Shown here: positions 12,042 to 28,502 of the stretch, in pieces
How positions within the stretch are numbered: position 1 is the stretch's first letter
Layout of the letters: every line of letters starts with the position of its first letter
Origin: Candidatus Eiseniibacteriota bacterium
GTDB lineage: Bacteria > Eisenbacteria > RBG-16-71-46
Reading direction: 5' to 3'
Assembly: GCA_963707915.1 (NCBI GenBank)
Contig: OY970178.1
Span: forward strand, 3,094,103 to 3,158,102
Length of the DNA: 64,000 bases
Position numbers and translations under genes: made by a program
The notes under the pieces: generated by a model
The model's input: the letters and a program-made list of their open reading frames with translations, nothing else
What the model was told of the DNA's origin: nothing
Databases searched by the model: none

Positions 12042-12485
12042 GTGGGGCGTTGGCAACGCGACTCCTTCCGAGAGTGGGTCCGGAATGCGACTTCCGTATC
12101 GCTGCGTCGTGAGCGGCACCAGGTGGCGGCCCGACCGGTTGATGGGGCGCGTGATGGCGGCTCGCGGCCGAAAGGCATTCGCGTCGGGCTCGGAGGTGGA
12201 GACGTCCGGAGCTTGTCAGGCCCGCTTCCGCAATGCCGTGTTCGTGATCGTGGATCGAGCGCCATCCCTGCGCGCATGACGTGCACTATAGCGCAGAACG
12301 AAAGCGAAGTCTCCGTAGTAATACCGACCCACCTATCATCGCCCCGCCCCGGGGAATCTTGAGCGATATCGGCGTCCGCATGACGCTTCCGTCGATTCGG
12401 CCGCGCGGTCAAGTTGCGTCCGGCTAAACACGGTGGCGTCGATGGATTCCGCAATGGTGGCCTCATCCGCCCGAGGGGCGGGCCG

Positions 12486-13532
12486 TCAGCTGCCCGTGGT
12501 GTCGGGCGGCGTCGTGTCCTGCGGCAGGGCGAGCACCTGGAGCCGGCCGAGCGCGCGCTCGGTGATGGCGACGAGCCCCCGGCCGTCGGTCACGAACGAG
12601 GTCGGGTAGGAGACCTCGCCGGGAGCCGTGCCCTCGCCCGTGGCCAGGGTGAGGAAGCCGCCGGCGTGGTCGAAGACCTGCACGCTCTGGCGGATCTCGT
12701 CGCACACCCAGATGCGGCCGTCCCGCGTGCCCAGCACCCCCGACGGCAGCGAGATGTTGCCCGGCCCCATCTCGTGCGTCGCGAAGCCGCGCAGGTAGGC
12801 GCCCTCGCCGGTGAACACCTGCACGCCGAGGTCCGTGCGCGCGCAGGTCACCGCCAGCGTGCTGTCCGGCATGACGGCCAGCGCGGTCACGCTGTGCAGG
12901 CGGCCCGGGCCGCTCCCGGGCTCGCCCCAGGAGCCGGCGCGGGAGTAGTCGGCGGCGAAGCGGTGGATCCGGGAGCCCTCTCCGGAACTGGCCACGTAGA
13001 TGGTGCCGTCGGGGCCGACGGCGAGGGCGATCGGCCGCTCGCCGGGAAGGTCCAGGCGCCGCAGCGGGCGGCCGCGACGGTCGAGGACGTCCACGTACGA
13101 CGCCGAGTTGTCCGCCACGAGCAGGCGCCCCGCGCGGTCGAAGGCCAGCGCGCAGGGCTCGCCGTCCACCAGCCCGCCGTCGGGACCGGCGACCCGGTGG
13201 ACGAACCAGGTGAGGGCGCGCCCGGTCTTCGAGAAGACCTCGATCCGGTGGGCGCCGGTGTTGGCGACGTAGATCGCCCCGTCGAGCGGATCGAACGCCG
13301 CCCCGCGCGGCCGGCTCAGGTTGGTGCCGTCCGCGTAACCCCAGATGACCAGCCTAGGGGTGAGCAGGCGCGGGGCCGCGGCGACCGCGGCCAGCGCGCA
13401 CGCGAGCAGCGCGGCCGCCAGCCCCGGGGCGAAGACGTGGCGCCGGACCCGTGCGCTGCGGAGCACCGCGCCCGCTCGGAGGCCGGGCTTCGCCCGGGCC
13501 CCCGGCTTCTCCTCGAGCGTCGCACGCGTCAC
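12486..13532 (-). CDS. NHL-repeat beta-propeller protein, secreted
   Basis: NHL-like repeats (IYVANTGAHRIEVF, IYVASSGEGSRIHRF, RIWVCDEIRQSVQVF). The ORF has no ATG upstream, so a GTG start at 13532 was chosen before the hydrophobic segment RRHVFAPGLAAALLACALAAVAAA. Start is uncertain. Confidence 0.55.
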   Translation of the reverse strand: MTRATLEEKPGARAKPGLRAGAVLRSARVRRHVFAPGLAAALLACALAAVAAAPRLLTPRLVIWGYADGTNLSRPRGAAFDPLDGAIYVANTGAHRIEVFSKTGRALTWFVHRVAGPDGGLVDGEPCALAFDRAGRLLVADNSASYVDVLDRRGRPLRRLDLPGERPIALAVGPDGTIYVASSGEGSRIHRFAADYSRAGSWGEPGSGPGRLHSVTALAVMPDSTLAVTCARTDLGVQVFTGEGAYLRGFATHEMGPGNISLPSGVLGTRDGRIWVCDEIRQSVQVFDHAGGFLTLATGEGTAPGEVSYPTSFVTDGRGLVAITERALGRLQVLALPQDTTPPDTTGS

Positions 13533-13896
13533 GGGGCACGCACCTTTCTGCGGTCGGGCTGGCCCGGGCTCGCCGCCGGGGCGAGGCGGCACGGGGATCG
13601 AGTCCCTTCGGGTCCGCCCATCGGCGCAGACACTACGGTCAGCCTCGCCCGCTGGCAACGCACGCCCCGCGGCGCCACCCGCGGCCGGGCGTTGACGCGC
13701 CTCGACCCCGGCCCCTATGTTGCCGCCGGCCGCGCGGCGGCCCGCAGGGTGCCGGCCCGGGCGGCCGCACGGAGACCACGCCATGACCAGGAACGGGGCG
13801 GTCCATGACCCGCAGGGCGGCAATCCGAGGGGAGCTCGGGACGTGGCCATCGCCGAGCGCGAGCCGGTCCGGCGCGGCGGCGGGCGGGATCACCTG

Positions 13897-15492
13897 ATGC
13901 CTCGCCGGGCGTCCGTGCTGGTCGCGCTCCTGGCGCTCGCGGTCTACCTGCCCCTCTGCCCGCCGGTGTCGGGGGTCGGGGACGGGAGCGAGTTCACCCT
14001 GGTGCTCGCCACGAACGGGGTCGCCCACCCCACCGGCTACCCCCTGTACGTCCTGCTGGGGCACCTGTTCTGCGTGCTCCTGCACGCGCTGGGCGTGTCC
14101 TGGCCGCTGGCTGCCAACGCCTGGAGCGCGGTCGGGGCCGCGGTGGCCATCGGCTTCCTGCACGCGCTCGGAACGGAGCTCGTCCGGCTCGCCACGCCGG
14201 GCCTGGCGGGGACCGCCCGCTTCGTCGCGGCGCTCGTGCCGGCGGCCCTGATCGCGTTCCAGCCCATCCTGCTGGGAGTGGCGACGTCGGCCGAGGTGAA
14301 CAGCTGGAGCCTGGCCTGGGTCTGTGCGGCGGCCTGGGCCTTCCTGCGGCTGTCGGCCGCGGTGGCGCGCGACGGGGGCCCCGAGCCCTCGCCCGGCCGT
14401 GCGGCCGCCCTCTGGGGGCTGGTCTGCGGCCTCGGGTTGGCGCACCACCTCACCTCCGTGGTGGTGGCGCTGCCGCTCTCGGCGGGCCTGGTCGTGCTGC
14501 TCGCCCGGCGGCGGCGTCTTGGGCCCGGTCTGCTGTTCCGGGCCGCCGCGGCGGCGCTGGTCCCGCTCGCGAGCTACGGGATCATCGCCTGGCGCGCCTG
14601 GCACCCGGCCCGGGTGCAGTGGCCGGCGCTGGTCCCGGGAGCGGCCTCGGTGCTCGAGCACATCAGCGGAGCGCAGTACCGCCACTTCCTCGGCTACTTC
14701 GACCCGGCCGCCGACCACCGCGCGTTGCTGGCGCGCGCGGGCTATCCATTCCTCGTCCCGGGGTTGGCGCTGCTCCTGCTCGGTGTCCTGCGCGAGCGGC
14801 GGCCGGAGCGGCGGGTGGCGTGGGCGGCGCTCCTGGCCGCCGCGCTGTCGTCGGCCCTCTTCGCCTTCCGCTACGGGGTTCCCGACCCGGCGCCGTACTT
14901 CCTGCCGGCGATGGCGCTGGGCGCGGCCGCGGCCGCGCCCACGGTGGCGAGCCTGGCGGGCGGGGCCGGGCGCGAGCGGGCGCTTCGCCTGGGCGTGATG
15001 GGTCTGGCCGCGCTCGCCCTGGTCGTCCCCTGGATCCGCGGCGGGCTGGCGGAGCGCCGCGGACTGATCGAGAACGAGGCCATGCTCCGCTCGATGTGGT
15101 CCGCCGTGCCGTCGGACACGGCCATCGTCCTGTGGCCCGACGACCGCTTCATCCACCTGGTCGAGTACCAGATCCTGCGCGGCGAGAAGCCCGCGCTGTG
15201 GATCGCCACGCCGGACATGCTGCTGGAGGCCGCCACGCGCGCCGAGCTGCGGGGGCGCTTCGGGACCGACCCGCTCGAGGGGGTGCGCGTTCCCACGGTT
15301 CGCCCCGGCTTGCCGGACGAGGCGGCGACCATCCAGCGGTCGCTCGCCGCCATCGTCAGGAACCTGAACGCCCGCACGCGCGTCCCGGTGATCTGGTTCG
15401 ACCCGGGCGTGCCCGAGGTGCGGCAGTTGCGCAAGCCCTGGGAGCCGGTGGAAGGCTCCGGCGCGCGTCCCGCCACGCTCCTGTCGCCGTAG
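13897..15492 (+). CDS. DUF2723 / TMEM260-like polytopic membrane protein (GT-C-like glycosyltransferase fold)
   Basis: Multi-pass membrane protein with a DGSEF motif near the N-terminus and a soluble C-terminal domain. Alternative start at 13783 (MTRNG). Confidence 0.55.
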   Translation: MPRRASVLVALLALAVYLPLCPPVSGVGDGSEFTLVLATNGVAHPTGYPLYVLLGHLFCVLLHALGVSWPLAANAWSAVGAAVAIGFLHALGTELVRLATPGLAGTARFVAALVPAALIAFQPILLGVATSAEVNSWSLAWVCAAAWAFLRLSAAVARDGGPEPSPGRAAALWGLVCGLGLAHHLTSVVVALPLSAGLVVLLARRRRLGPGLLFRAAAAALVPLASYGIIAWRAWHPARVQWPALVPGAASVLEHISGAQYRHFLGYFDPAADHRALLARAGYPFLVPGLALLLLGVLRERRPERRVAWAALLAAALSSALFAFRYGVPDPAPYFLPAMALGAAAAAPTVASLAGGAGRERALRLGVMGLAALALVVPWIRGGLAERRGLIENEAMLRSMWSAVPSDTAIVLWPDDRFIHLVEYQILRGEKPALWIATPDMLLEAATRAELRGRFGTDPLEGVRVPTVRPGLPDEAATIQRSLAAIVRNLNARTRVPVIWFDPGVPEVRQLRKPWEPVEGSGARPATLLSP

Positions 15493-15555
15493 CCACGTCC
15501 GGCGCCCTGCCCGCACCGGCCGCCCCGGGGATCAGGTGGCCGGTGCGGCGCGCCC

Positions 15556-18500
15556 TCAGTCGCGCTTCGGCCCCATGGAGGGGTCGTGGCACTGGATGCA
15601 CAGCTCCCGGGTCGGCTCGTGCGTCAGCAGGGAAGGCTGGTCGCTCGAGTGGGGCAGGTGGCAGCCGACGCAGTCGAGCGGCTCGTTGGTGCGCGGGTCC
15701 ACGCCTCCCGAGACCTTGTGGAAGTGCTTGGACGTGTCCGAGTGGCACTGCCGGCACAGCGTGTCCACGTCCTCGGTGAGCAGCTTCTTGTGCTTCCCGC
15801 TGTGGGGATCGTGGCACGTCGCGCAGCCCTGCCCGAGCGCGGCGTGCACGTTCTTCCGGCGGAACGGGCGGGGATCGTGGCACTGGAAGCAGAGCTTCTC
15901 GCCCGCGCGCTTCAGCACGCCGGTCGCCATGCCCGCGTGCGCTCCGTGGCAGGAAAGGCAGGCCTCGCGCGACTGCAGCGGCGCGTGGACGACGGGCGCG
16001 GAGAGCCACGCTTTCTGCCCCTCGTGGCAGCGGAAGCACAGGTCGGGCACCGGCTGAGTCGTCGCCCCGGTCTTGCGCTCGCCATGACACTCGACGCACC
16101 TGCGCTGCGCGAAGGGCATGTGCGAGACGGGCTTGAGCATGCCGGGCCGGCCCGTCGCTCCGACGTGCGGATCGTGGCAGTCCACGCAGTTGGCCTTCGC
16201 GAGGGCGAAGCCCTGGTGCTTCGCCAGGAGCCCCTGCTTCTCGATCGAGTGGCAGGCGGTGCAGAGCGCGGCCCCCTGGCGCTTCGTCATGCCGGGCTCG
16301 TCGGTGCCGTGGCTCGCGTGGCAGGTCGAGCAGAGCCCCATGGCGACCGGCGCGTGGGGCTTGCCCTGCGCGATGCGGGTCTGCAGGTCCGCGTGGCAGG
16401 TGAAGCACAGCGCGCCGGTGCGCTGCTTCAGCAGCGCCGGGTTGGCGCTCTCGTGCGGCTCGTGGCAGGTCGCGCACTGGCCCGCGGCCGCGGGCGGGTG
16501 CCCGTGCTTGAGCCGGGCGTCGGCGACGGCCCCGGCATGGCACCGGACGCACAGCCGGATGGGCTGGGTGACCAGCAGCGCCGCGCGGTCGGAGGCGTGC
16601 GGCGTGTGGCAGGCGACGCAATCGCCCTTCGCGACCGGCGGATGCACGTGGCCGGCGGCCGCGCCCTGCGGTGTGGCCTTCTTCTTCGGGATCTGGTGGC
16701 ACGAGGCGCACAGCGTGGCCGCCGGGCGCGCCAGGTTCAGGGCCCCGGGCGCGCCGGTCTTCCCGTGGCACTTGGTGCACTCCTTCGACCCGAAGAACGG
16801 GTGTTCGCGGGCCGCCAGCAGGCCGGCCGACTTGGACGCGTGCGGGGTGTGGCACGAGAGGCAGTCGACCGCGGTCAGCGTGGCGCCGCCGTGTTTCCGG
16901 GTGAGGTCCGCGTCCTCCAGGTCGTGGCAGTCGCCGCACAGCGCGGGCACCTTCTTCGTCAGGGCGGGCGCCGCCACGCCGCCGTGGGGATCGTGGCAGG
17001 AGAGGCACTCGCCGCTCTCCACCGGGGGATGCACGGTGTCCCCTTCCTTGCCGATGCCGCCGTGGCACCGGGTGCACAGGGCGTTGGGCTCGTCGCGCAG
17101 CAGGGCCGCCCGCGACCCGCCGTGGGGCTCGTGGCAGGCCGCGCACTGCCCGGCCGCGGCCGGGGTGTGGGGTGCGGGGCCCTTGATCTTCGCGGCGATG
17201 TCGGCGTGGCACTTGGTGCAGAGGGTGGCCCCGCCGGTCGCGAGCAGGCGGTTGGTGAGCCCGCCGTGGGCGCCGTGGCACTCGAGGCACTGCCCGGCGG
17301 CTGCCGGCGCGTGCGGATGGGACGCCTTGGCCGCCATCACCTCCTGGCCGTGGCAGGGCGCGCAGATCTTCGCCGGCTCGCCGCGCAGCAGCTTGCCCTG
17401 GCCCGACTGGTGCGGGTCGTGGCAGGCGGTGCACTGGCCGGAGCGGAACGGCGGGTGCACCTCGAGGCCGACGAGCTTCTGCGCCAGGTCGGCGTGGCAG
17501 GTCCGGCAGAGCGCGCGCATGTCCTTGCGCAGGAGCCGCTCCTCGGCCGCCGAGTGGGGGGCGTGACAGCGCAGGCAGTCCTTCTTCGCGAACGGCGGGT
17601 GCGTCCCGGCGCTGTCGGCGCGGGCCCCGAGGTCCTTGTGGCAGTCGAGGCACATCGCGCCGTCGGCGGTCTTCAGGAGGTGCTCGCGGTCGGATCCGTG
17701 CGGCTGGTGGCAGCCGGCGCAGTCGCCGGCCGCGAACGCCTTGTGGACCACCGGCTGCTTCAGCGCTTCGGCGAGCTGGTCGTGGCACTGGCCGCAGAGT
17801 TCCAGCGGCTTCGACTTGAGCAGGCCCCGGGCGACCCCGCGGTGCGGGTCGTGGCAGGTGAGGCACTCGCCGCCCGCCGCCGGCGGGTGGGGCGTGGGTT
17901 TCTGGGACGCGGTCCGCACGTCGTCGTGGCAGGTGAAGCACAGCTCCGGCACCTCGGTGACGAGCTTCGCGCCCGCCTTGCCGTCCTCCATCGTGTGGCA
18001 GGCGTCGCAGCTGCCCTCGGCCGCGGGCGCGTGCGCGGTCTCGCGCCGGAGCGCGGTCTCGGTCGAGGCGTGCGGGTCGTGGCAGTCGAGGCAGGCCAGC
18101 CCGGCGACCGTGAGCTTCGCGTGCGCGGTGGCCGTGTCGGCGGGCTTGTGGCACGTCGCGCAGAGCTGGTCGGCCGGGCCGCGGAGCAGCCCGGCGTCCT
18201 TCGAACCGTGGGCGTCGTGGCACGCGTAGCAGTCGCCCCGGGCAAAGACCGCGTGCACGTGCGGCTTCTTCGCCTGGGCCGCGGCCTCCTCGTGACAGGG
18301 GAAGCAGGTGGCTTGCGGGCCCCCGGCGCGCAGCAGCCGCGGCTGGTCGGAGGCGTGCGGATCGTGGCAGGAGAGGCACTTGCCCTGTTCGTAGGCGGCG
18401 TGCGCGTGCTCGGGCTTCGCGGCCGTCTTCAGGGCGTCATGGCAGCCGAAGCACAGCTCCGGCGCCGGCTTCACCAGGATCAGCTTCTGCAGGAAGCCGT

Positions 18501-18717
18501 GGCTCTTGTGGCAGGCCGCGCAGTCCACCTTCGCGACCGGCGCGTGAACGAACTTCCTCGACCCGTAGTCCTGCTTCGCGTCCTTGTGGCAGTCGTAGCA
18601 GGGACGGCCCTTCGGCACCGGCTTCGCGGCGTCGACGTGTCCGGGCAGCAGCAGCGGGACGGCGCCGAGCAGTGCTGCCGCGAACAGCGCGCGCAGGAGA
18701 CGGGCGGGGCGGCTCAT
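15556..18717 (-). CDS. giant multiheme c-type cytochrome, 1053 aa, 42 CxxCH motifs in repeated c7-like units
   Basis: Signal peptide MSRPARLLRALFAAALLGAVPLLLPGHVDA. 42 CxxCH motifs counted by eye, spaced about 18-22 aa apart with intervening His ligands (…DPHAS…). Confidence 0.9.
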   Translation of the reverse strand: MSRPARLLRALFAAALLGAVPLLLPGHVDAAKPVPKGRPCYDCHKDAKQDYGSRKFVHAPVAKVDCAACHKSHGFLQKLILVKPAPELCFGCHDALKTAAKPEHAHAAYEQGKCLSCHDPHASDQPRLLRAGGPQATCFPCHEEAAAQAKKPHVHAVFARGDCYACHDAHGSKDAGLLRGPADQLCATCHKPADTATAHAKLTVAGLACLDCHDPHASTETALRRETAHAPAAEGSCDACHTMEDGKAGAKLVTEVPELCFTCHDDVRTASQKPTPHPPAAGGECLTCHDPHRGVARGLLKSKPLELCGQCHDQLAEALKQPVVHKAFAAGDCAGCHQPHGSDREHLLKTADGAMCLDCHKDLGARADSAGTHPPFAKKDCLRCHAPHSAAEERLLRKDMRALCRTCHADLAQKLVGLEVHPPFRSGQCTACHDPHQSGQGKLLRGEPAKICAPCHGQEVMAAKASHPHAPAAAGQCLECHGAHGGLTNRLLATGGATLCTKCHADIAAKIKGPAPHTPAAAGQCAACHEPHGGSRAALLRDEPNALCTRCHGGIGKEGDTVHPPVESGECLSCHDPHGGVAAPALTKKVPALCGDCHDLEDADLTRKHGGATLTAVDCLSCHTPHASKSAGLLAAREHPFFGSKECTKCHGKTGAPGALNLARPAATLCASCHQIPKKKATPQGAAAGHVHPPVAKGDCVACHTPHASDRAALLVTQPIRLCVRCHAGAVADARLKHGHPPAAAGQCATCHEPHESANPALLKQRTGALCFTCHADLQTRIAQGKPHAPVAMGLCSTCHASHGTDEPGMTKRQGAALCTACHSIEKQGLLAKHQGFALAKANCVDCHDPHVGATGRPGMLKPVSHMPFAQRRCVECHGERKTGATTQPVPDLCFRCHEGQKAWLSAPVVHAPLQSREACLSCHGAHAGMATGVLKRAGEKLCFQCHDPRPFRRKNVHAALGQGCATCHDPHSGKHKKLLTEDVDTLCRQCHSDTSKHFHKVSGGVDPRTNEPLDCVGCHLPHSSDQPSLLTHEPTRELCIQCHDPSMGPKRD

Positions 18718-19238
18718 CGCGCGGACACGGTGTCGTGGCCGGCCGGCCGCGTCGGGGGCGCGGTGGGCGGGCTCGCCGGGGCGACGGCCGACGTGTCGAC
18801 CATGATCGGCGCCCGCCCGGTGAACTCGACCTTGACCACCTGGAAGGCGAACATGGACTTGCGCGCGAAGTGGGGCGGCATCTTGAGCAGCGCCCAGGTC
18901 GTGTCCTGCGGCGCCTTCTTCTGGAAGACGATGATGCGGAAGGCGGGGTTGTCGGGCTGGTCGGACTTCGACATGATCTTGCGGGTGGTGAGGTCCATGG
19001 TGAAGTCGGGCACGTACTCGACCACGCGCGCCGAGAAGTCGGTGTCACCGAGGATGAAGTCCTGCTTCAGCTTCACCCGCTGCAGGTCGCGGAAGTCGTG
19101 GAAGACGCGATGCCGCACCAGCAGCGTCACGGCGTCCAGCCGCGCCCCGCCCGCGGCCGCCGGCGGCTTCACCTGCGCCTGGGACGGGAGGACCGCGACG
19201 AGTCCGATCAGGAGCCCGAGCCACCACGTGCGTCTCAT
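18714..19238 (-). CDS. small secreted/periplasmic hypothetical protein
   Basis: Start MRRTWWLGLLIGLVAVLPSQAQ with AAGGAAGGA upstream. Stop overlaps the giant cytochrome start by 4 nt. Confidence 0.55.
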   Translation of the reverse strand: MRRTWWLGLLIGLVAVLPSQAQVKPPAAAGGARLDAVTLLVRHRVFHDFRDLQRVKLKQDFILGDTDFSARVVEYVPDFTMDLTTRKIMSKSDQPDNPAFRIIVFQKKAPQDTTWALLKMPPHFARKSMFAFQVVKVEFTGRAPIMVDTSAVAPASPPTAPPTRPAGHDTVSAR

Positions 19239-19867
19239 CTGGATCCTTCCTTGCGGGGGCCCGGCGCGCGGCGCGCGCCCGCCACCCTGAAGTCGCCGAG
19301 CATGTCCTGGGCGAGCAGCGAGACCAGCCGTTCCGTGCTCATGACCCGTCCCCAGCCGAACAGCGTCTCGTGGTCCTCGCCGGAGCGGAAGTGCACACCG
19401 GCCCACAGGACCCGGCCGCTCGCGGCCTCGACCAGCCGCAGCGTGCCGCCCACGGCGGGCACGTCCAGGTCGCCGCTGCGCAACCGTCCGCTCTCGAGCA
19501 CGCTGCCCATCAGCAGGTAGGGGGCGCGCAGGGCCTCGCCCAGCTCGCGGACCTGCGCCGGCGTGAGCGAGCCGCCCGAACGGATGCCCAGCGAGTCCAT
19601 CGCCTCGTCCACCTGCCCGGGCTCGGCCATCTCGAGGGCGCCGCTGGCGACCAGCTGGGCGAAGAACACCTTGCTGAAGAGCGCGCCCTGCTCCTCGCGG
19701 CCCGCGAGGTTCTCGAACGGCACGAGCGCGGCGCGCGGGTGGTCCGCGGGCACGGTGCCTCCGGCGGAGCGACGCAGGGCCGGTGCGCTCCCGGCGCACA
19801 GCACCGCCAGGCCGGCGAGGACGGCGAGCCGCAGCCCGATCGCGATGCGCCCGTGACGTCGAGCCAT
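19235..19867 (-). CDS. lipoprotein with an LpoB/CsgG-like (TolB-N-like) fold
   Basis: Signal/lipobox region ...LAVLCAGSAP, then the motif AALVPFENLAGREEQG. Paralog of the next gene. 4-nt overlap with the downstream gene. Confidence 0.6.
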   Translation of the reverse strand: MARRHGRIAIGLRLAVLAGLAVLCAGSAPALRRSAGGTVPADHPRAALVPFENLAGREEQGALFSKVFFAQLVASGALEMAEPGQVDEAMDSLGIRSGGSLTPAQVRELGEALRAPYLLMGSVLESGRLRSGDLDVPAVGGTLRLVEAASGRVLWAGVHFRSGEDHETLFGWGRVMSTERLVSLLAQDMLGDFRVAGARRAPGPRKEGSR

Positions 19868-19869
19868 GG

Positions 19870-20460
19870 TCAGAACGCCCTCCCGCGCAGCCGGGCCACG
19901 AGCTCGTCGCAGGCGTCCTGCGTCAGCCGTCCCAGCGAGCGCGAACTCTGGCCGAGGACCGGGATGCGGCTCTTGCCGCGCTTCGCGATCGAGGACCGCC
20001 AGACCACGTTCCCGGTGTTGGCGTCCAGCAGCTCCGCGTCGAACGACAGGACCGGGATGTCGCCGTTCTCCGTGCGCTGCATGGTGTACTCGCTGACCGC
20101 GCCGCGCAGCACGCCGGTGGCTCCCAGCCGGAGGGCCACCTCCTTGAGCTTCTGCAGGTCATACGTCCCGTCCGTCTCCGGCATGACGTTGTCCTTCAGC
20201 AGGGCGGTGCGGAACTCCTCGGGCTGCACGATCTGGTAGCGGTCCGTCATGATCAGCGAGGTGATGAAGGCGCGCGTGACGCGCGGTCCGGCCAGCCCCT
20301 CGCTGCTCAGGTTGGTGAACGGCAGCACGGCGATCCTGGTGTAGAAGGCCATGTCCGCGTCGGGATTCAGGTAGACCCGGGAGACCGGGGCGCAGGAGAG
20401 CAGGAGCAGGCCCAGGGCGGCGGCCGCCATGCGTGCCAGAGGATGGTGCTTCCCGGCCAT
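19870..20460 (-). CDS. lipoprotein with an LpoB/CsgG-like fold (paralog of 19235..19867)
   Basis: Lipobox LLLSCAP, then RIAVLPFTNLSSEGLAG, a motif typical of the LpoB/CsgG/GNA1162 lipoprotein fold. Confidence 0.65.
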   Translation of the reverse strand: MAGKHHPLARMAAAALGLLLLSCAPVSRVYLNPDADMAFYTRIAVLPFTNLSSEGLAGPRVTRAFITSLIMTDRYQIVQPEEFRTALLKDNVMPETDGTYDLQKLKEVALRLGATGVLRGAVSEYTMQRTENGDIPVLSFDAELLDANTGNVVWRSSIAKRGKSRIPVLGQSSRSLGRLTQDACDELVARLRGRAF

Positions 20461-20461
20461 G

Positions 20462-22111
20462 CTACCTCCAGAGACTCTGGGACAAGGTCGCGCTCACCTG
20501 CCGGGCGCGGGTGGGAAGACCCGGGTCCGCCTGAGTGTAGCGAATCGTGGCGTGCAGGTCGCGGTTCAATGCCACGGCGAGCCAGGCGCCGTAGGCCTCA
20601 CGGCCGGCCGTGAGCGACGTGCCGGGGTCGCGCAGTTGCTGGTTCGCGCGGGTGTAGGTGCCGCTCGCCTGGACGGTGCGCGAGGGGGTCCACTGCACGC
20701 TGGCCTGCAGCGTCGAGCGGTCGGGCGCGTTGCGCACGAAGCCCCCGGCGCGGCCCCAGCTGCCGCTCGCCTGCAGCTTCTCCGAGGCCCGCCAGTCGAG
20801 GCTCGTCGTGTAGGTGGTCGAGGCCGGGCCGTCGCCCCGCAGCGTCGCGCCGGTGCGGTAGCGCCGCAGGTTCGCATTGAGGGTGACGGTGCGCAGCGGC
20901 ACCGCGCGCAGGCCGGCGGCGGTCTGCAGCGTCACCAGGGTCGCGGCCGGGCCGGTTTCGAGGCCCGCGCTGGGGCGGTCGGCCCTGGAGAGCGAGGCCT
21001 CGCCGAAGGCGTCGAACCCCTTCGAGAGCCGCATCCGCGTGTTCGAGCGGATGCTCTGGACCGGGCGGGCGCGGTCGCCGGGGAGCCAGTTCCACGACTG
21101 GTTCGCGCTCGCTCCCAACCTCCACCCGGGCCGGGCGTCGCCCTCGGCCGAGGCCGACGTGCTCAGGAAGCTCTCGGTCTCCTCGCTGCCCGCGACGTTG
21201 ACGCTGCGCACTCCGCCGCCGCCGGACAACTGCACCGCCTTCCAGGGCCGGTGGATGACGCTGAGTGAGCCGTCGTGATCGACCTCGGTCGTGGTGGCGA
21301 ACTGCGTGGTGCCCACGCTCCGGAAGCTGTAGGCGAGACTGGCAGAGGTCCGCTTGGAGATCGCCAGCCCCCCGTTCGCGGACGCGCTGTGCACGCGCGA
21401 GGTGGCGTCATGGGCCCCGTCGACCTGCCTGCGCGACTGGTTGTAGTCGTACTGGAGGACGGCATTCGCACGCCGGTTCTCGAGGCGCACGGTCGAGCCG
21501 GCGTTGACGTTCTCCTCGCTCCCGGTCCGCCGCCGCGCGCTGCGGTCCTCGTTGGCCAGGTCGCCGTAGCCCGCGTGGAGGTTCAGCCGCCCCAGGTCGT
21601 AGTTGGCCATCAGGCTGCGCCTCACGGCCGCTGTGCCCGGGAACGGGCCGCTCGCATCCTGGTTGCGACGGTTCCACGAGGCCGACAGCTGGGGAAGCCC
21701 GGCCCGCTGGAAGTAGCCCGTCAGGTTGGTCTCCTGCTGGCGGGTCGTGAGGTTGCGCGAATCGACGACCGTGATCGGCCGGTAGGAGCCGAACAGCCCG
21801 AACAGCGGATGGGCCAGGCGCAGGGAGCCCTGCGGGAGGATCTGGCGGTCGGGTCGTCCGATGGTGCGCTGGTCGGTGAACTGGAACCGGGACGAGAGCT
21901 CGTAGGCCTTGCGGAAGCGGCGGGAGTAGTCGAGTTGCACGGAGGTGAGCCACCATTCCACGTCGTTGGCCGGGTCCAGCAGGCTGAGCTTCGAGTATTG
22001 CACCTCGGCGACTCCCCGGATCTTCTGCTGGGCGTCAGCGGGCCCGGCGAGCAGAACGGCCGCCATCGATGCCGCCACCAGCCCCGCCCCCAGCGCTCTT
22101 CGCCGCATCAT
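20462..22111 (-). CDS. outer-membrane beta-barrel protein
   Basis: Start MMRRRALGAGLVAASMAAVLLAGPADA. 549 aa rich in alternating strands and in Ser/Thr/Asn/Gln/Tyr. Start overlaps the upstream cytochrome stop. Confidence 0.6.
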   Translation of the reverse strand: MMRRRALGAGLVAASMAAVLLAGPADAQQKIRGVAEVQYSKLSLLDPANDVEWWLTSVQLDYSRRFRKAYELSSRFQFTDQRTIGRPDRQILPQGSLRLAHPLFGLFGSYRPITVVDSRNLTTRQQETNLTGYFQRAGLPQLSASWNRRNQDASGPFPGTAAVRRSLMANYDLGRLNLHAGYGDLANEDRSARRRTGSEENVNAGSTVRLENRRANAVLQYDYNQSRRQVDGAHDATSRVHSASANGGLAISKRTSASLAYSFRSVGTTQFATTTEVDHDGSLSVIHRPWKAVQLSGGGGVRSVNVAGSEETESFLSTSASAEGDARPGWRLGASANQSWNWLPGDRARPVQSIRSNTRMRLSKGFDAFGEASLSRADRPSAGLETGPAATLVTLQTAAGLRAVPLRTVTLNANLRRYRTGATLRGDGPASTTYTTSLDWRASEKLQASGSWGRAGGFVRNAPDRSTLQASVQWTPSRTVQASGTYTRANQQLRDPGTSLTAGREAYGAWLAVALNRDLHATIRYTQADPGLPTRARQVSATLSQSLWR

Positions 22112-23511
22112 CGAGCATAGTTGATCGTGTACGACTCGGGATCGTGACACGTCGGCGAGCAGGTGCCGCCGCTGGCCGTCTCGGTGTAGGAGCCGATGCC
22201 CGGGTTGCGCCCCGTGGCGATGAGATGGCGCTGGTCGGGCGAGCCGTGCGTGACGTGGCAGGCGTAACAGGGGACGTGCTCCTCGCCGACGTGCTCGGCG
22301 TGGCCCTTGTCCACCCCGGGCTTGTTGAACCGCGAGAGGGCCCTCGTCGCCTCGGGCGCGCCCGGGTCCGCGTAGACTTCGGGGGTGTGGCAGGCGAAGC
22401 AGATCTCGCCGGTGCTCATCGTCCGCGGCTGGGGCGAGGCGGTGTAGGGCTGCGTCAGGATGTAGCGGTACGAGGAGCCGTGCGGCCCGCGCGTGGACCC
22501 GACGAAATCGCTGCCGTGGCAATCGCCGCAGCGCGTGAGGCTGGCGGCGCTCCAGCCGGGCGCGAACGCGCCGGCCGGGATCCCCGGGTTGCGGCCCGCG
22601 GCCTCGACCGGGTGGAACGACTCGTTCGCCGGGTTCAGGACCAGGGCCAGGTCGGTCTGCCCCGAGGGCTGGCTGGTCCAGGACGAATGGCACTTGAAGC
22701 AGAGCTGGTATTCCGCCACCGGCGCGCTCAGCGTATCGGAGCCGGCGGCGAACGTGAACGTGGGGGGCGTGCCCGCCGGGCCGTTCTGCACCAGCACCCG
22801 ACTCACGCCCAGGTTGGTGCGCGAGAGCCCGGGGGCGGCCGGCGTGGCGGGCCGGTCGGCGCCGGCCACGTGCGGGTTGTGGCAGTCGACGCACTCGGAG
22901 TGGCGCGCGTTCGCGGGCGAGACCCCGAAGTCGGCGGGATCGGATTCGGCCGGTCCCTTGTGGCGCCCGGAGTAGAGCCGCACCGGGTGCCGGTAGACCT
23001 TGGCGAGATCGGCGCCGATGTTGGTGGAAGCGGGCGCGCCGTCATGGCAGGTGAGGCAGAGAGTCTCCTCGCGCCCGATGGCGAGCGCCGGGATCAGCCC
23101 GCCGGCGTCCGACCAGCCGTGCGGGTCGTGGCAGTTGAGGCACTTGCCCTCCGCGCCCGGCTCGGTGCGTGGCGGGGGGGTGGGCCCCGGCCAGGCGGTC
23201 CCGGTGGCCGTGCCGTGAGAGGCGCCGGAGTACACCCAGGGCCCCGCGTAGCTGCCGGCCGTCCAGGGCTTGTCGTGGCAGCGGTCGCAAAGCGAGTTGT
23301 CGTCCGGGCCGAGCAGCGCGTGCCCGTAGACGACATCCCCCTGGCCGTGCACGGTGTGGCACTGGTCGCAGTCGCCCGCGTGCGCGCCCTGCGCCAGGAG
23401 CTTCTCGACGCCGGCGGGGGTGCGATAGGGATGCAGGGGCTGCGCTCCAGTCGCCAGCAGGCACACCAACGCCAGCCCCGCGAGGCTCGAGACGAGATCC
23501 CTCGGTCGCAT
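22108..23511 (-). CDS. multiheme c-type cytochrome (about 9 CxxCH plus 1 CX3CH)
   Basis: Start MRPRDLVSSLAGLALVCLLATGAQP, possibly a lipoprotein. Motifs CDQCH, CDRCH, CLNCH, CLTCH, CVDCH, CFKCH, CGDCH, CFACH, CYACH and CSPTCH. Confidence 0.8.
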   Translation of the reverse strand: MRPRDLVSSLAGLALVCLLATGAQPLHPYRTPAGVEKLLAQGAHAGDCDQCHTVHGQGDVVYGHALLGPDDNSLCDRCHDKPWTAGSYAGPWVYSGASHGTATGTAWPGPTPPPRTEPGAEGKCLNCHDPHGWSDAGGLIPALAIGREETLCLTCHDGAPASTNIGADLAKVYRHPVRLYSGRHKGPAESDPADFGVSPANARHSECVDCHNPHVAGADRPATPAAPGLSRTNLGVSRVLVQNGPAGTPPTFTFAAGSDTLSAPVAEYQLCFKCHSSWTSQPSGQTDLALVLNPANESFHPVEAAGRNPGIPAGAFAPGWSAASLTRCGDCHGSDFVGSTRGPHGSSYRYILTQPYTASPQPRTMSTGEICFACHTPEVYADPGAPEATRALSRFNKPGVDKGHAEHVGEEHVPCYACHVTHGSPDQRHLIATGRNPGIGSYTETASGGTCSPTCHDPESYTINYAR

Positions 23512-23591
23512 GCTGCCCAGATTAGCCCAGCGCGTCGAAAACCTCACGCTGCCCACCCGTCCCGGCCTGGAAGTGGATGCCCGATGGACAT

Positions 23592-23622
23592 CCGGCCGAC
23601 TCCGGGATGCGGAGCCGGCCGG
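23592..23622 (-). terminator. GC-rich hairpin just downstream of the OmcS-like gene (possible partial terminator or attenuator)
   Basis: 13-bp stem with one mismatch (CCGGCCGACTCCG / CGGAGCCGGCCGG) and a 5-nt loop. No U-tract follows. Confidence 0.35.
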
Positions 23623-23644
23623 ACCTTGCCCGATGTTGCGAGGC

Positions 23645-24718
23645 TCAGGGGATGATCGCGACCGGGTTGCCGGCCGGGAAGCTGCCCTGGGTGTGGCACT
23701 GACGGCACAGGTCGCGGTACTCGCCGCCGTCACCCTGCTCGGTGATGTCGGTCGGGGTTGCGGGCGTGTTGGGACCGGTCGTGGTGTTGTCCACGAACCA
23801 GATCAGCCCGAAGCCGTTCTGGTTGCCGTGCGACTTGTGGCAGGTGAAGCACGACGGGGTCGCGGTGGCGGTCGAACCGTCCCACTGGCCCAGCCCGTCC
23901 ATCAGCTTGACCTTGTGCGTGTGCAGGTTCAGCTGGGTGCGGTTGCTGGTGCTGAGGTCCACGCCGGCCGTCGGGTGACGGACCACGCCGTCGACGGTCT
24001 CGATGTTGGCGTCCGCCGGTGAGCCGTGGAAGGTCGTGTGGCAGGCCTGGCACCATGCGCCGTAGGCGCTCGTGGTCTGGCTCGGCTCCTGGTAGTTGAC
24101 GTTGTTCCAGCCGTAGCCGCGCGCGGCCGCCTCGTAGACGTCCTTCGTGTTGGTGGGCGTCCCGCCGATCTCGTAGGAGACGAACCGGTTGTAGAAGGCG
24201 TTGGTGCTGCGCGTGCTGCTCTTCAGGTTGCGGTAGTTCGCCGCGCCGTGCGCGGAGTGGCAGTCCGCACAACCCAGGCCGCTCGCGCTCACGGGCGAAG
24301 TCGTGCCGCTGAAGCCCGGCGGCGTGGCGGTCGACCACAGCGTGTGGCCGTCACCGACGGAGTAGCCGGCGTCGTTCGTGTAGCCGTGGCCCGACTCGAC
24401 GTTCAGCGCACCGGCGAGGCGGCCGTTCAGCGGGGCCGCGCTCGTGGTGCCGAGCACGTCCGGAACGTCCGTGCGACCGTCGTGGCACGAGAGGCACACC
24501 GCGTTGACCGACGACTGGCGCAGCAGCTTCGCGAACGGAGCGCCGGCGCCCGGAGGATTCAGCTCGCCGGTCTCGGGGTAGGTGTGCGACTGCTGGCCGT
24601 GCATCACGTGGCAATCGCTGCAGACCAGCAACTGGCCGACGTGATAGTCGCCCGACAACGCGACGGTCGTGAGACCGGCGAGGGCCAGGACGACGAGGGA
24701 GAGCAACAGGCGCTTCAT
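23645..24718 (-). CDS. omcS-like: OmcS-family hexaheme c-type cytochrome (nanowire-type extracellular cytochrome)
   Basis: Signal peptide MKRLLLSLVVLALAGLTTVALS and six CxxCH motifs. Motif-by-motif resemblance to Geobacter OmcS as recalled from memory: CSDCHVMHG vs CEGCHTMHN; CLSCHDG vs CLNCHQH; WCQACHTTFHGSP vs WCANCHTDIHNS; CFTCHKSHG vs CLSCHRAHA; C-terminal LCRQCH vs LCNKCH. Long Ser/Thr/Gly-rich inter-heme spacers. Confidence 0.75.
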   Translation of the reverse strand: MKRLLLSLVVLALAGLTTVALSGDYHVGQLLVCSDCHVMHGQQSHTYPETGELNPPGAGAPFAKLLRQSSVNAVCLSCHDGRTDVPDVLGTTSAAPLNGRLAGALNVESGHGYTNDAGYSVGDGHTLWSTATPPGFSGTTSPVSASGLGCADCHSAHGAANYRNLKSSTRSTNAFYNRFVSYEIGGTPTNTKDVYEAAARGYGWNNVNYQEPSQTTSAYGAWCQACHTTFHGSPADANIETVDGVVRHPTAGVDLSTSNRTQLNLHTHKVKLMDGLGQWDGSTATATPSCFTCHKSHGNQNGFGLIWFVDNTTTGPNTPATPTDITEQGDGGEYRDLCRQCHTQGSFPAGNPVAIIP

Positions 24719-25276
24719 GAGTTTGCTCCTCGTGGTGGTGGGGGATGCTTCGGGTTCGAATCTTCAGGAGTCGGGTCTGAAGGTAACGAGCGAGTTGCGC
24801 TGACCCCCCTTTCGAACCCGGGAGTGGGAACGAGTGCTGGTCCAGCGGCGTTTCGCAGGACCGTGCTCGATTCGAACGGACCTTCCTGAGCCTTCGGATC
24901 GGGCGGGAGGCGGGAGGCGTTCTGCCTCCCTCCGTCACCCTGCGTCTCGACCACGAGTGACTCAGGACGTTGAGACGGGAACGATGATACGGTAATGTGA
25001 ACTGCGCGTCTAGGTGAAAGTACTGATGCGAGGTCCGCAGTCCACCTGTGGTCTGGTGTTCTAAAGTACCATGTGCCATCTAGATACGTAGACTAATGGC
25101 TATCAACGACATGAGTCCGCTTCTGGGAACGGATGGTCCTTACCGGCGCTTGCCGAATCAACTGGAGTCTGAAATCCTCCGTCGACTAGGCCATTTCCCG
25201 CTCTTGTGTTCCATAAAGAAACGATTGGTTGGATGGTCTTCCGCCCGTCGAGTGACCCATAATTCCGAGGGAAGTC

Positions 25277-27487
25277 GTGAATCTTGGTGACCTGCTGCTG
25301 AAGCTCGCATTCCTGCTCGCGGTCCCGGCCGCCTTCCTCTTCTTCCAGGACGTCCGGGGCCGCCGCGGGCCCGCAGCGGCTGAATGGATGTTCGGGCTCC
25401 ACTCGGCCGCCATCCTCGGCGCGGTCGTCACGCTCTGGGCGCTCTTCCTCGGCCACCGCTTCGAGTACGCCTACATCGCCGAGTACAGTTCCCGCGCCCT
25501 CTCGCCCGCGCTCACCTTTGCGGCCTCCTGGGCCGGGCAGGAGGGCAGCATCCTGCTCTGGGCACTGCTCATGGCGCTGGTGGGCGTCGCCCTGATGCGG
25601 CAGCCGGGGCCGCTCTCCCGGCCGGCGATGTTCTTCGTCGCGCTCGCCCAGCTCGGCCTGCTGGTGCTGCTCCTGGTGCGCAGTCCGTTCCGCGTGAGCC
25701 ACGTCACCCCGGCGGACGGCCAGGGCCTGAACCCGCTGCTCGAGGATCCCTGGATGGTCGTCCATCCGCCGGTGCTCTTCGTGGGGTACGCGGCGATGGT
25801 GGCCCCCTTCGCCCTGGCGGGCGCCGCGCTGGTGCTCGGTCTGTGGCGCGAATGGAACCGCGCCGTTTGGCCCTGGGTGCTGTTCGCGGTGCTCTCGCTC
25901 GGAACCGGCATCGCCCTCGGCGGCATCTGGGCCTACAAGGTGCTGGGCTGGGGCGGCTACTGGGGCTGGGACCCGGTCGAGAACGCCTCGCTCGTGCCCT
26001 GGCTCGTCGCGGTCGCGCTCCTGCACGGCCTGTTCATCCAGAAGACCACCGGTGGGCTGGTGCGCAGCAACCTGCTCATGGCGTTCCTGGGATGGCTCAC
26101 CGTGCTCGGCGGGACCTACCTGACCCGCAGCGGCGTGCTGCAGGACTTCTCGGTCCACTCCTTCGCCGACTCGGGCCTCAACGTGCCGCTGATCGTCAAC
26201 CTGGCCGGCGCCCTGCTGATCGCGGCCGTGCTGCTGGCCTGGCGCTGGCGCGCGATCGAGTCGAGGCCCACCCGCTGGACCAGCGTCTCGCGCGAGGCCG
26301 CGCTGTGGGTCGGGCTCGTCACGGTGCTGGTCTTCGCGGCCATGGTGACCTTCGGCACGATCGCTCCGCTGCTCACCTCGCTGGCCGGCCGGCCCGCCAG
26401 CGTGCGCCCGTCGTTCTACCAGTCGATGAGCGTGCCGCTCGGCGTCCTGCTGGTGCTGGTCATGGCGGTCGCGCCGGCGCTGCGCTGGTCGCGGCAGGTG
26501 GGGTTCGGCTGGCTCACGGCGCTCGCCCCGGGGTTCCTGTGCGCGCTGCTGGCGTTCGGGGGCGCGCTCCTCACGGGCGTGCGGGACGGGGCGCACCTGG
26601 CGCTGCTCGCCACGACCGGGTTCGCCCTCGGGATCAACGCGTGGATGACCGTGAAGCTGTTCCGCCGCGGCTGGAGCTACGGCGCGGGCTACCTCGGGCA
26701 CGCGGGGCTCGCCATCATGATCCTGGGGATGGTGATGTCCACGGCGCTGGGACGCACCGAGCGCCTGACGCTGCGGACGGGCGAATCGGGGCAGGCCCTC
26801 GGCTACACGATCACCTACCGCGGAGACCATTTCGATCCGCGCGGTGGCCACCAGCTCGACGTGCTGGTGAGCCGCAAGGGCTGGAGCTTCGAGGCCCGCC
26901 CGCAGCTGCTGAAGATGCCGCAGGGCGAGGGCAGCATGCACAAGCCGGCCATCAGCGGCCGGCGCGAGCTCTACCTGTCGCCAGTGGACGTGCAGCGGCT
27001 GGAGAGCGACGCGGACCGGATCGTGTGGCTGCCGCAGGGCCAGGCGGTGCCGGCGCTGGGACTGACCTGGACCTTCGTGGGGTTCCGGATGGAGTCGCAC
27101 GAGGCCATGCAGGTCCTGGCCGACATCGATGTCCGCCGGAGCGGGCCGGCGGTGCGGATCTCCCCCGGGATGCGCGCCGACGCGCAGGGGACCCGGGCGC
27201 TGCCGGTCGAGGTGGCCGGCCTGGGGCAGGTCACGGTCGAACGGATCGACGCGGATCGCAAGCGGGTGGGTGTGCTGCTCCCGGGTGCCGGGGCGGCGAG
27301 CCAGGCGGTGCTGGAGTTCAGCACCAAGCCGCTGGTCAACCTGGTCTGGGTGGGCGCGCTCATCACCCTGCTCGGGGCCGCGCTGGCCGGCCTGCGCCGT
27401 GCCATCGAGGTCGTGCCTGGCGCGCGACGCCGGCGGGCCGCCGCCGCTCCGGCCGCTCCAGCCGTCCCGACCGGCGGGGCCCGGTAA
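25277..27487 (+). CDS. ccmF: cytochrome c-type biogenesis protein CcmF/NrfE (heme lyase)
   Basis: GTG start with GAGGGAAG upstream. Polytopic membrane protein with the Trp-rich WGGYWGWDPVEN motif typical of CcmF. Confidence 0.85.
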   Translation: MNLGDLLLKLAFLLAVPAAFLFFQDVRGRRGPAAAEWMFGLHSAAILGAVVTLWALFLGHRFEYAYIAEYSSRALSPALTFAASWAGQEGSILLWALLMALVGVALMRQPGPLSRPAMFFVALAQLGLLVLLLVRSPFRVSHVTPADGQGLNPLLEDPWMVVHPPVLFVGYAAMVAPFALAGAALVLGLWREWNRAVWPWVLFAVLSLGTGIALGGIWAYKVLGWGGYWGWDPVENASLVPWLVAVALLHGLFIQKTTGGLVRSNLLMAFLGWLTVLGGTYLTRSGVLQDFSVHSFADSGLNVPLIVNLAGALLIAAVLLAWRWRAIESRPTRWTSVSREAALWVGLVTVLVFAAMVTFGTIAPLLTSLAGRPASVRPSFYQSMSVPLGVLLVLVMAVAPALRWSRQVGFGWLTALAPGFLCALLAFGGALLTGVRDGAHLALLATTGFALGINAWMTVKLFRRGWSYGAGYLGHAGLAIMILGMVMSTALGRTERLTLRTGESGQALGYTITYRGDHFDPRGGHQLDVLVSRKGWSFEARPQLLKMPQGEGSMHKPAISGRRELYLSPVDVQRLESDADRIVWLPQGQAVPALGLTWTFVGFRMESHEAMQVLADIDVRRSGPAVRISPGMRADAQGTRALPVEVAGLGQVTVERIDADRKRVGVLLPGAGAASQAVLEFSTKPLVNLVWVGALITLLGAALAGLRRAIEVVPGARRRRAAAAPAAPAVPTGGAR

Positions 27488-28500: not shown

Positions 28501-28502
28501 GC

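Follow-up and report, generated by a model that had tools for sequence, protein, structure and literature searches.

What is a nine-kilobase operon of multiheme cytochrome, beta-barrel, and lipoprotein genes for in Candidatus Eisenbacteria, a phylum without cultured members? The earlier note on this DNA had offered two answers, a new extracellular electron-transfer conduit or a dedicated machine for the export and assembly of cytochrome filaments. The operon was analyzed within a 64-kb stretch of DNA (hereafter the window) and compared with the omcS-companion (osc) cluster of Geobacter, which Shen et al. reportedly tied to conductive OmcS filaments in 2025. The Geobacter sulfurreducens genes GSU2505-GSU2493 served as the osc reference, compared through the loci L009, L010, and L094.

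Organization of the Operon

ORFs and junctions were read from the sequence, and the seven minus-strand genes (24718->15556) lay exactly where they had been placed before (Table 1). Codon-position GC marked the whole block as coding on the minus strand, and plus-strand genes bound it on both sides. The ATGA overlaps described in the earlier note were found at the g2/g3 (22108/22111), g5/g6 (19235/19238), and g6/g7 (18714/18717) junctions; 1 nt separated g3 from g4 and 2 nt separated g4 from g5. The g1 gene was indeed set apart from g2 by 133 nt, and the GC hairpin expected in this gap was present with a 14-bp stem. Motif counts also bore out the previous estimates of 6, approximately 10, and 42 hemes. 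The seventh gene, g6, was missing from the title of that note. A classical decaheme-barrel-lipoprotein cytochrome trio lies nearby (8389-12119), separate from the operon.

Table 1. Genes and other features of the operon and its surroundings (window positions).
Feature	Coordinates	Strand	Remarks
g1, hexaheme cytochrome	23645-24718	-	357 aa; 6 CxxCH
g2, decaheme cytochrome	22108-23511	-	467 aa; 9 CxxCH + 1 CxxxCH
g3, predicted large beta-barrel	20462-22111	-	549 aa
g4, LpoB/GNA1162-fold lipoprotein	19870-20460	-	196 aa
g5, LpoB-fold lipoprotein	19235-19867	-	210 aa
g6, ResB-domain secreted protein (predicted)	18714-19238	-	174 aa
g7, giant cytochrome	15556-18717	-	1053 aa; 42 CxxCH
CcmF-like cytochrome c heme lyase	25277-27487	+	divergent; outside the operon
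NHL beta-propeller lipoprotein	12486-13445	-	GSU2505 orthologue; start coordinate approximate
TMEM260-like GT-C glycosyltransferase	13717-15492	+	convergent on g7; Pfam TMEM260-like, E 5e-17
Candidate sigma-70-like promoter	24984-25012	-	approximately 270 nt ahead of g1; weakly supported
GC-rich stem-loop	23591-23623	-	14-bp stem, 5-nt loop; 22 nt past the g1 stop codon

Conservation of the Gene Order

Related loci were gathered by a genome scan with the g1 alignment. The earlier note had named homologs that never co-occur elsewhere as the finding that would speak against a linkage of these genes; on the contrary, all seven were collinear in each of the 30 complete related loci, mostly from Eisenbacteria, so the arrangement is not due to chance. 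The core of g1, g4, g5, and g7 was present in 56 of the 80 loci and recurred in Zixibacteria, Ignavibacteria, Gemmatimonadota, and others. Two bridging loci, L054 (Acidobacteriota) and L082, carried a g1-type cytochrome among canonical OscD, OscF, OscG, and OscH genes; of these two, only L054 had OscE. Barrel and lipoprotein genes stood between cytochrome genes in all 30 complete loci and also in Geobacter, Acidobacteriota, and FCB phyla.

The OmcS-like Cytochrome g1

The g1 product combines a signal peptide with six CxxCH motifs and lacks a lipobox; a GAGGAG Shine-Dalgarno sequence stands ahead of its ATG. A phmmer search of PDB sequences with g1 gave no OmcS match and pairwise BLASTP was no more than marginal; profile comparison was needed to recognize the relation. 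The g1 and OmcS families aligned over 274 columns (hhalign 99.7%, E 1e-26), with all six CxxCH motifs collinear, as were six other conserved histidines. One of these histidines, His16 of OmcS, corresponds to H40 of g1 (CxxCHxxH, heme 1) and is invariant in 32 g1 relatives; the five others are distal histidines that align between the two proteins. Since CxxCHxxH is common in multiheme proteins, the conserved "His16" in g1 is not a proof of inter-subunit ligation. The AF2 model of g1 without heme was poor (pLDDT 60), and Foldseek with this model found no significant PDB match and did not retrieve OmcS. The profile alignment identifies g1 as a distant OmcS-family member, predicted to be a secreted hexaheme cytochrome, for which "OmcS-like" had been the right label, and makes it a putative filament subunit.

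The Decaheme Cytochrome, the Barrel, and the Lipoproteins

Conservation within the cluster was highest for g2 (median identity of 60%), whose ten heme motifs were kept in 38 of 39 orthologues and whose stop codon overlaps the start of g3. Residues 46-221 of its product aligned with residues 32-310 of g1 (hhalign 98.3%, E 1e-14), hemes 1-5 being collinear. No relative of g2 was found in the PDB, and its score against the MtrA/DmsE family TIGR03508 reached 37.7 bits (cut-off of 192). By this alignment, g2 is a predicted secreted decaheme cytochrome in which an OmcS-like five-heme module comes first and five more hemes follow.

The g3 product had no Pfam match, and its comparison with OscE by pairwise BLASTP alone was not significant. 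An HMM of g3, built without any Geobacter sequence, matched Geobacter OscE with E values of 3e-17 to 2e-19, and hhalign paired both proteins at 98.1%. The predicted structure of g3 was a 28-strand barrel. Homology and model together mark g3 as a large outer-membrane beta-barrel of the OscE kind, in agreement with the earlier reading of this gene.

The g4 and g5 products are paralogues (hhalign 100%), with a lipobox in 38 and 39 of 45 orthologues, respectively. The Pfam LpoB score of g4 exceeded the cut-off of 22.3 bits (26.1 bits, E 9e-6), and that of g5 stayed below it (18.2 bits). Comparison with Geobacter OscF gave 30% identity for g4 in BLASTP (E 2e-18) and 100% in hhalign (E 2e-38), while g5 aligned with residues 202-357 of OscG (99.8%, E 8e-28) and with OscF (99.9%). 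Hence, g4 is assigned as an OscF homologue and g5 as the equivalent of the C-terminal domain of OscG. The "two CsgG/LpoB-fold lipoproteins" announced for this operon thus kept the paralogous LpoB fold; the CsgG/curli comparison is unsupported, as no operon product matched CsgG in Pfam.

Since Pfam names the g4 fold LpoB, the barrel and the lipoproteins might be taken for general envelope machinery of the curli/CsgG, LPS, or PBP-activator type, with the cytochrome genes beside it by accident. We consider such a coincidence extremely improbable, as the NCBIfam LpoB model TIGR02722 gave only 18.9 bits for g4 and 16.3 bits for g5 against a cut-off of 110.55, CsgG gave no match, and the synteny in all 30 complete loci, Geobacter, Acidobacteriota, and FCB phyla contradicts it. 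The LpoB PBP-activator, CsgG/curli, and LPS readings were rejected on the family scores and the cytochrome-only gene context.

Another possibility is a porin-cytochrome conduit in place of a filament machine, with g2 inside g3 as MtrA in MtrB, g1 as a monomeric surface reductase, g7 as a periplasmic feeder, and g4 and g5 in assembly or stabilization. The g2-g3 adjacency was the sole resemblance to canonical MtrCAB, from which the earlier note had separated the operon. A conduit of this kind seems unlikely: g3-g5 are OscEFG homologues, g2 falls far under the MtrA/DmsE cut-off, g1 is without a lipobox and retains the OmcS heme and histidine pattern, and a separate classical trio is encoded next door (8389-12119).

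The ResB-Domain Protein g6 and the Giant Cytochrome g7

Searched alone, g6 matched nothing in Pfam or the PDB. It had 183 relatives among 1.84 billion representatives, and nine of the ten long weak matches tested were Pfam ResB proteins. Residues 48-121 of g6 aligned with residues 311-397 of ResB (hhalign 99.0%, E 3e-18), but no member of the g6 family reached the Pfam ResB family itself. The gene was not found in canonical osc loci; its position in the operon is that of OscH in the Geobacter cluster. By these data, g6 is predicted to be secreted and shares homology with a portion of the periplasmic domain found in the cytochrome c biogenesis proteins ResB/Ccs1.

The g7 product has a signal peptide and 42 CxxCH motifs, covered by 21 Pfam Paired_CXXCH_1 stretches, and the full set of 42 was present in 27 of 28 orthologues. 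Its heme-spacing series reproduced that of OscI followed by OscJ of the loci L094 and L054 (26 + 16 hemes). The g7 is accordingly described as OscI (26 hemes) fused to OscJ (16 hemes), with 21 paired-CXXCH units and a predicted periplasmic location. The total of 42 hemes was constant across phyla, whether carried by one gene or by two (26 + 16 hemes); speculatively, the length of g7 may therefore be fixed.

Neighboring Genes

The CcmF-like gene (Pfam Cytochrom_C_asm, E 1e-28; CcmF_C, E 2e-23) has a homologue that adjoins the cluster in 15 related loci. The NHL protein (Pfam NHL, E 2e-14) carries an LLAC lipobox and aligned with GSU2505-like proteins at 100% (hhalign, E 2e-40) and more weakly, at 97.9%, with OscD. 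Its homologue lies upstream of g1 in the 30 complete loci and is displaced from that place here. The TMEM260-like gene is found at the corresponding site in L002, L012, and L013, and its product is possibly a glycosylase of the filament.

The Region Upstream of g1 and the Hairpin behind It

Positions 15300-25400 contained one match to a sigma-70-like consensus versus 0.2 expected from shuffles. No sigma-54 -24/-12 element was found upstream of g1, and no Rfam family, riboswitches included, matched the g1 leader. The stem-loop behind g1 has no U tract and its sequence varies between lineages. Of 38 related loci, 31 have a stem of 11 bp or longer in the corresponding position, compared with 3% of random 200-nt windows. 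The whole 161-nt region 23500-23660 folded no better than shuffles (z -0.9), only the single hairpin standing out. It is probably an attenuator or an mRNA-stabilizing hairpin.

A Proposed Model of the Eisenbacteria Machine

The membership of g1 in the OmcS family, the homology of g3-g5 to OscE, OscF, and OscG, the OscI + OscJ composition of g7, and the GSU2505-like NHL protein support the second of the two answers offered at the outset, a machine that exports and assembles cytochrome filaments. Judged by its homologies, the operon is a modified form of the osc cluster known from Geobacter and not a new type of system, contrary to the novelty suggested before; a new conduit is possible for the g2-g3 pair at most. 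In our opinion, the operon is probably an osc-type cytochrome-nanowire cluster of Candidatus Eisenbacteria that exports, anchors, and charges an OmcS-like filament. Against this view stands the lack of OscH and OscD, which in Geobacter have been linked to folding and to the morphology of the filament.

In such a machine, the seven products would be exported by Sec and loaded with heme in the periplasm, where the neighboring CcmF-like lyase and g6 may assist. The lipoproteins g4 and g5 together with the 28-strand g3 barrel would form an outer-membrane channel; g1 would cross it, or be mounted on it, and then polymerize, with His40 (His16 of OmcS) ligating heme 5 of the next subunit. The g7 cytochrome and g2, with its OmcS-like five-heme module and five further hemes, would conduct electrons through the periplasm as far as the filament base, and the post-g1 hairpin could keep the subunit mRNA in excess over the machinery mRNA.

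Multiheme chains are reversible and the direction of flow is not fixed by sequence, which leaves room for the same hardware working in reverse, i.e., taking up electrons from Fe(II), minerals, cathodes, or a partner cell. This would be a matter of direction, not another machine, and we find it rather improbable: neither a Cyc2- or MtoA-type marker nor a linked oxidase lies in the block, and the only characterized relatives act in Fe(III) and electrode reduction (PMC13194489).

More speculatively, and with clear reservation, the osc-type machine might do more than secrete and act as the nanowire's electrical socket. The g2 cytochrome would sit in the g3 barrel, its five-heme module acting as the template and first "subunit" for g1 polymerization and its five extra hemes reaching the periplasm; the 42-heme g7 would bridge to the inner membrane, and g6 would stand in for the PPIase as a dedicated chaperone of cytochromes.

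The comparison separates what persists across phyla that are far apart (an OmcS-like subunit, an OscE barrel, a pair of LpoB-fold lipoprotein domains, the 42-heme periplasmic cytochrome, and the NHL lipoprotein) from what can be dispensed with or replaced (OscB, OscD, and OscH, the PPIase). With g2, it singles out one protein that may form the base of the filament, and the seven genes make a simpler set to rebuild in a heterologous host. The comparison also suggests that uncultured FCB-group phyla from soil and sediment possess OmcS-type extracellular electron transfer.

Comparison with Known Systems

For the osc operon, it has been proposed that OscH folds, OscEFG secrete, and OscD shapes OmcS nanowires (PMC13194489; PMC12977616). 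How the Geobacter system works is still regarded as speculative (PMC12307469), and the export, anchoring, and charging of nanowires are treated as an open question (PMC12307469; bioRxiv 10.1101/2025.10.22.684050), with a porin-mounted filament as one model (bioRxiv 10.1101/2025.10.22.684050).

With MtrCAB and the Geobacter OmaB-OmbB-OmcB/Ext systems, the operon shares a decaheme gene just upstream of, and translationally coupled to, a large barrel gene. It differs in that g2 and g3 remain below the MtrA/DmsE and MtrB family thresholds and no lipoprotein cytochrome is encoded. The likeness to ResB/Ccs1 of System II is confined to a periplasmic-domain segment of approximately 74 residues in g6, which at 174 aa is a stand-alone, predicted secreted protein without transmembrane domains.

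The OmcE clusters of Desulfuromonadia (bioRxiv 10.1101/2025.10.22.684050) follow the same logic of a filament subunit, multiheme cytochromes, a large beta-barrel, and beta-propeller lipoprotein(s), often with GT-C or other glycosyltransferases nearby. However, the OmcE subunit is a tetraheme protein unrelated in sequence to g1, and neither LpoB-fold lipoproteins nor a 42-heme protein were reported there (bioRxiv 10.1101/2025.10.22.684050).

The closest counterpart is the osc cluster, from which the Eisenbacteria operon differs by the absence of OscB (spermine-synthase-like), OscD (YNCE propeller), and OscH (PPIase). Neither a tblastn match to OscH nor an orthologue of OscD was found in the 64-kb window or the Eisenbacteria loci, the NHL protein of the GSU2505/OscK type being the sole propeller there, and OscB was absent across the window. 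The barrel gene is preceded by the decaheme g2 here, whereas in Geobacter the hexaheme OscC (GSU2501) and then OscD stand before it, and the ResB-domain g6 takes the position of OscH. OscI and OscJ, separate in osc, are fused as g7; the two-domain OscG has a one-domain counterpart in g5; and the g1 subunit is shorter than OmcS (357 versus 434 aa), with approximately 25% identity. Common to both are the OmcS-family hexaheme cytochrome, the OscE-type barrel, the OscF lipoprotein, the OscG-type LpoB domain, the 42 hemes (OscI + OscJ in osc), and the GSU2505-type NHL propeller, and the shared genes follow one another in the same order, from the barrel through the lipoproteins to the giant cytochrome.

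Organization of the operon

Seven minus-strand open reading frames, g1 to g7 in transcription order, were read from the sequence at exactly the coordinates claimed in the earlier note. Direct reading also confirmed the ATGA overlaps at g2/g3, g5/g6 and g6/g7 and a 133-nt g1–g2 gap with a GC-rich hairpin, the remaining gaps being of 1 nt and 2 nt. The third-codon-position GC indicated minus-strand coding across the entire block (the G+C content of the window is ~72%), and plus-strand genes flank it on either side; hence, by layout, g1–g7 is one transcription unit. All seven products carry signal peptides. In the species-representative genome set, the nearest relative of the window was a Candidatus Eisenbacteria MAG (87% g1 protein identity).

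In related loci the position of the hairpin after g1 is conserved but its sequence is not: stems of at least 11 bp followed g1 in 31 of 38 loci versus 3% of random 200-nt windows. In pilin operons a hairpin gives a high subunit-to-machinery ratio, and the one after g1 would set such a ratio here.

Features of the operon and its surroundings (window positions unless a comparison locus is named)
Feature	Position	Strand	Remarks
g1	23645-24718	minus	357 aa; 6 CxxCH
hairpin	23591-23623		in g1–g2 gap; 14-bp GC-rich stem
g2	22108-23511	minus	467 aa; 9 CxxCH + 1 CxxxCH
g3	20462-22111	minus	549 aa; no haem motifs
g4	19870-20460	minus	196 aa; no haem motifs
g5	19235-19867	minus	210 aa; no haem motifs
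g6	18714-19238	minus	174 aa; no haem motifs
g7	15556-18717	minus	1053 aa; 42 CxxCH
42-haem total, window	15556-18717
42-haem total, L094	13330-16598
42-haem total, L054	13166-16485
TMEM260-like GT-C O-mannosyltransferase	13717-15492	plus	convergent on g7
NHL beta-propeller lipoprotein	12486-13445	minus	LLAC lipobox; GSU2505 orthologue
trio decahaem	11094-12119	minus
trio putative barrel	9522-11081	minus	519 aa; no Pfam match
trio six-haem lipoprotein cytochrome	8389-9576	minus	LAAC lipobox
PAS hybrid histidine kinase	3120-5483	minus
CcmF-like haem lyase	25277-27487	plus	divergent from g1
ClpB	28455-31172	plus
GAF-GGDEF diguanylate cyclase	37132-38643	minus

Homology to the osc nanowire cluster

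As described in two citing papers (PMC13194489; PMC12977616), the G. sulfurreducens osc (omcS-companion) operon includes omcS, omcT, oscB and oscC (GSU2501), then genes linked to filament morphology (OscD), secretion (OscEFG) and folding (OscH), followed by OscI (GSU2495, 26 haems) and OscJ. Geobacter-type loci (L006, L009, L010) were obtained via OmcS homologues, and L094, a complete canonical osc cluster from a metagenome, was used as a comparison.

OmcS, the hexahaem filament subunit, was not retrieved with g1 by phmmer among PDB sequences, and pairwise BLASTP was marginal (E 3e-5). Profile–profile comparison of the two families, with an OmcS reference identical to 6EF8 chain A, gave 99.7% (hhalign, E 1e-26, 274 columns). 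In the merged alignment the six CxxCH motifs are collinear and six more conserved histidines match, among them OmcS His16, whose counterpart in g1, H40, does not vary among 32 relatives. From the 6EF8 structure, we take His16 to be the ligand of haem 5 in the neighbouring subunit. On balance, we favour filament formation by g1.

In g7, a signal peptide is followed by 21 paired-CXXCH units. Its first 25 CxxCH-to-CxxCH distances are identical to those in OscI of L094 (26 haems), the 28-residue steps at positions 8 and 25 among them, and the last 15 match the 16-haem OscJ, thus g7 is, as judged from motif spacing, an OscI–OscJ fusion. L054 (Acidobacteriota) has the same 26+16 pattern; whether in one gene or two, the haems add up to 42, with nearly identical spacing across phyla.

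The g3 product had no Pfam or NCBIfam matches. HMM searching linked it to OscE with E 8e-7 and, after one iteration excluding Geobacter sequences, collinearly with E 3e-17 to 2e-19 (hhalign 98.1%, 520 columns). Its confident AlphaFold2 model (pLDDT 87) has 28 beta-strands; by standard strand-number geometry, the barrel should measure about 5 nm between C-alpha atoms, a predicted width that is sufficient for a folded cytochrome. The mutually paralogous g4 and g5, of LpoB fold, carry lipoboxes, and canonical ones are present in most of their orthologues. g4 is related to OscF (BLASTP 30% identity, E 2e-18; hhalign 100%, E 2e-38), and g5 to the OscG C-terminal domain (99.8%) and OscF (99.9%). A curli, LPS or PBP-activator machine was ruled out by family scores and gene context.

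The variant-specific g2 and g6 and the neighbouring genes

No same-size counterpart of g2 was found in Geobacter. Residues 46–221 align to haems 1–5 of g1 (hhalign 98.3%), with five further haems after them, and the 10 motifs are retained in 38 of 39 orthologues. The median identity of g2 (60%) is the highest of the cluster (g1 46%, g3 29%), and its stop codon overlaps the g3 start. Such conservation and tight coupling would suit a porin–cytochrome conduit with g2 inside g3 and g1 monomeric; however, neither g2 nor g3 passes its respective family test (MtrA, MtrB) and a classical decahaem–barrel–lipoprotein cytochrome trio already adjoins (8389-12119, minus strand), hence we regard the conduit as unlikely. 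Homologues of the trio decahaem and putative barrel come directly after the g7 homologue in two Eisenbacteria loci (L058, L085).

Canonical osc loci contained no homologue of g6, and neither Pfam nor PDB gave a match. The g6 family is small, with 183 members recovered when 1.84 billion representatives were searched in full with HMMER; nine of ten long distant matches tested were Pfam ResB proteins, and residues 48–121 align to the ResB periplasmic domain (hhalign 99.0%, E 3e-18). Located between the OscG-like and OscI-like genes, g6 occupies the exact position of OscH in Geobacter.

The presence of a CcmF-like homologue beside the cluster in 15 related loci points to a maturation partner dedicated to it. 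The NHL protein matches GSU2505 (hhalign 100%, E 2e-40), encoded immediately upstream of omcS; its homologue lies upstream of g1 in the 30 complete related loci and is displaced in the window and L011. The TMEM260-like gene is conserved in L002, L012 and L013; a PMT_2/TPR GT-C protein is encoded upstream of the osc cluster in Geobacter L009 (1077-2693), and an uncharacterised 543-aa ORF holds the same position in L094 (1413-3044). GT-C genes beside the clusters hint at filament glycosylation. ClpB, the diguanylate cyclase and the histidine kinase are also encoded nearby.

Conservation across genomes

A scan with the g1 alignment, one genome per species, gave 151 relatives, and 80 loci were kept. 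All seven genes were present in 30 loci, collinear in every one, including three obtained through g3 homologues; among the scan loci alone, 28 were complete (19 labelled Eisenbacteria). The core of g1, g4, g5 and g7 occurred in 56 of the 80. It recurs in Zixibacteria, Ignavibacteria, Gemmatimonadota, Latescibacterota, Krumholzibacteriota, Fibrobacteraceae and Armatimonadota, where the barrel is more divergent. Complete or nearly complete Eisenbacteria-type clusters in MAGs labelled Saccharimonadales, Bacteroidota, Hyphomicrobiales and Verrucomicrobiia (L014, L015, L016, L040) probably reflect binning or labelling errors rather than true hosts.

Four g1-like hexahaem paralogues were present in L060 (Armatimonadota, 8846-20383), with a second, inverted NHL–g1–g2–barrel–lipoprotein set, and three in L076 (Zixibacteria, 2547-12239), where NHL and g1-like genes are tandemly repeated on one strand. 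These paralogues mirror the omcS/omcT/oscC duplication of Geobacter.

Proposed mechanism and comparison with known systems

The operon would make an OmcS-like extracellular filament, exported or mounted at an outer-membrane channel built from the g3 barrel together with lipoproteins g4 and g5, the same porin-type model as discussed for Geobacter (bioRxiv 10.1101/2025.10.22.684050). The periplasmic haem path would be supplied by g7 and g2, and g6 with the adjoining CcmF-like protein may act in cytochrome maturation or chaperoning. Reversed electron flow (uptake) is compatible with the sequence but less likely.

The window operon is very probably an osc-type cluster. Of the two alternatives in the earlier note, the homology supports the second, a dedicated machine for the export and assembly of cytochrome filaments. 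The study of Shen et al. 2025, reportedly titled 'widespread and ancient', may already include window-type clusters, which would make the variant less novel. A g1-type cytochrome amid canonical OscD/F/G/H genes was found in L054 and L082 (Polarisedimenticolia), OscE being present only in the former; by their gene content, these two loci bridge the window-type and canonical clusters.

In comparison with Geobacter osc, OscI and OscJ are fused in the window, the gene for a decahaem OmcS-like paralogue (g2) is coupled to that for the barrel, g6, with its ResB domain, stands where the PPIase would be, OscB and OscD are missing, and the host phylum is uncultured. Homologues of OscB, OscD and the PPIase OscH were found neither in the 64-kb window nor in the Eisenbacteria loci. 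The system is of a known kind, not a new one, and its architecture is a distinct variant. This variant delimits the part of the nanowire machinery that forms its conserved core and supplies a candidate, open to testing, for the base of the filament.
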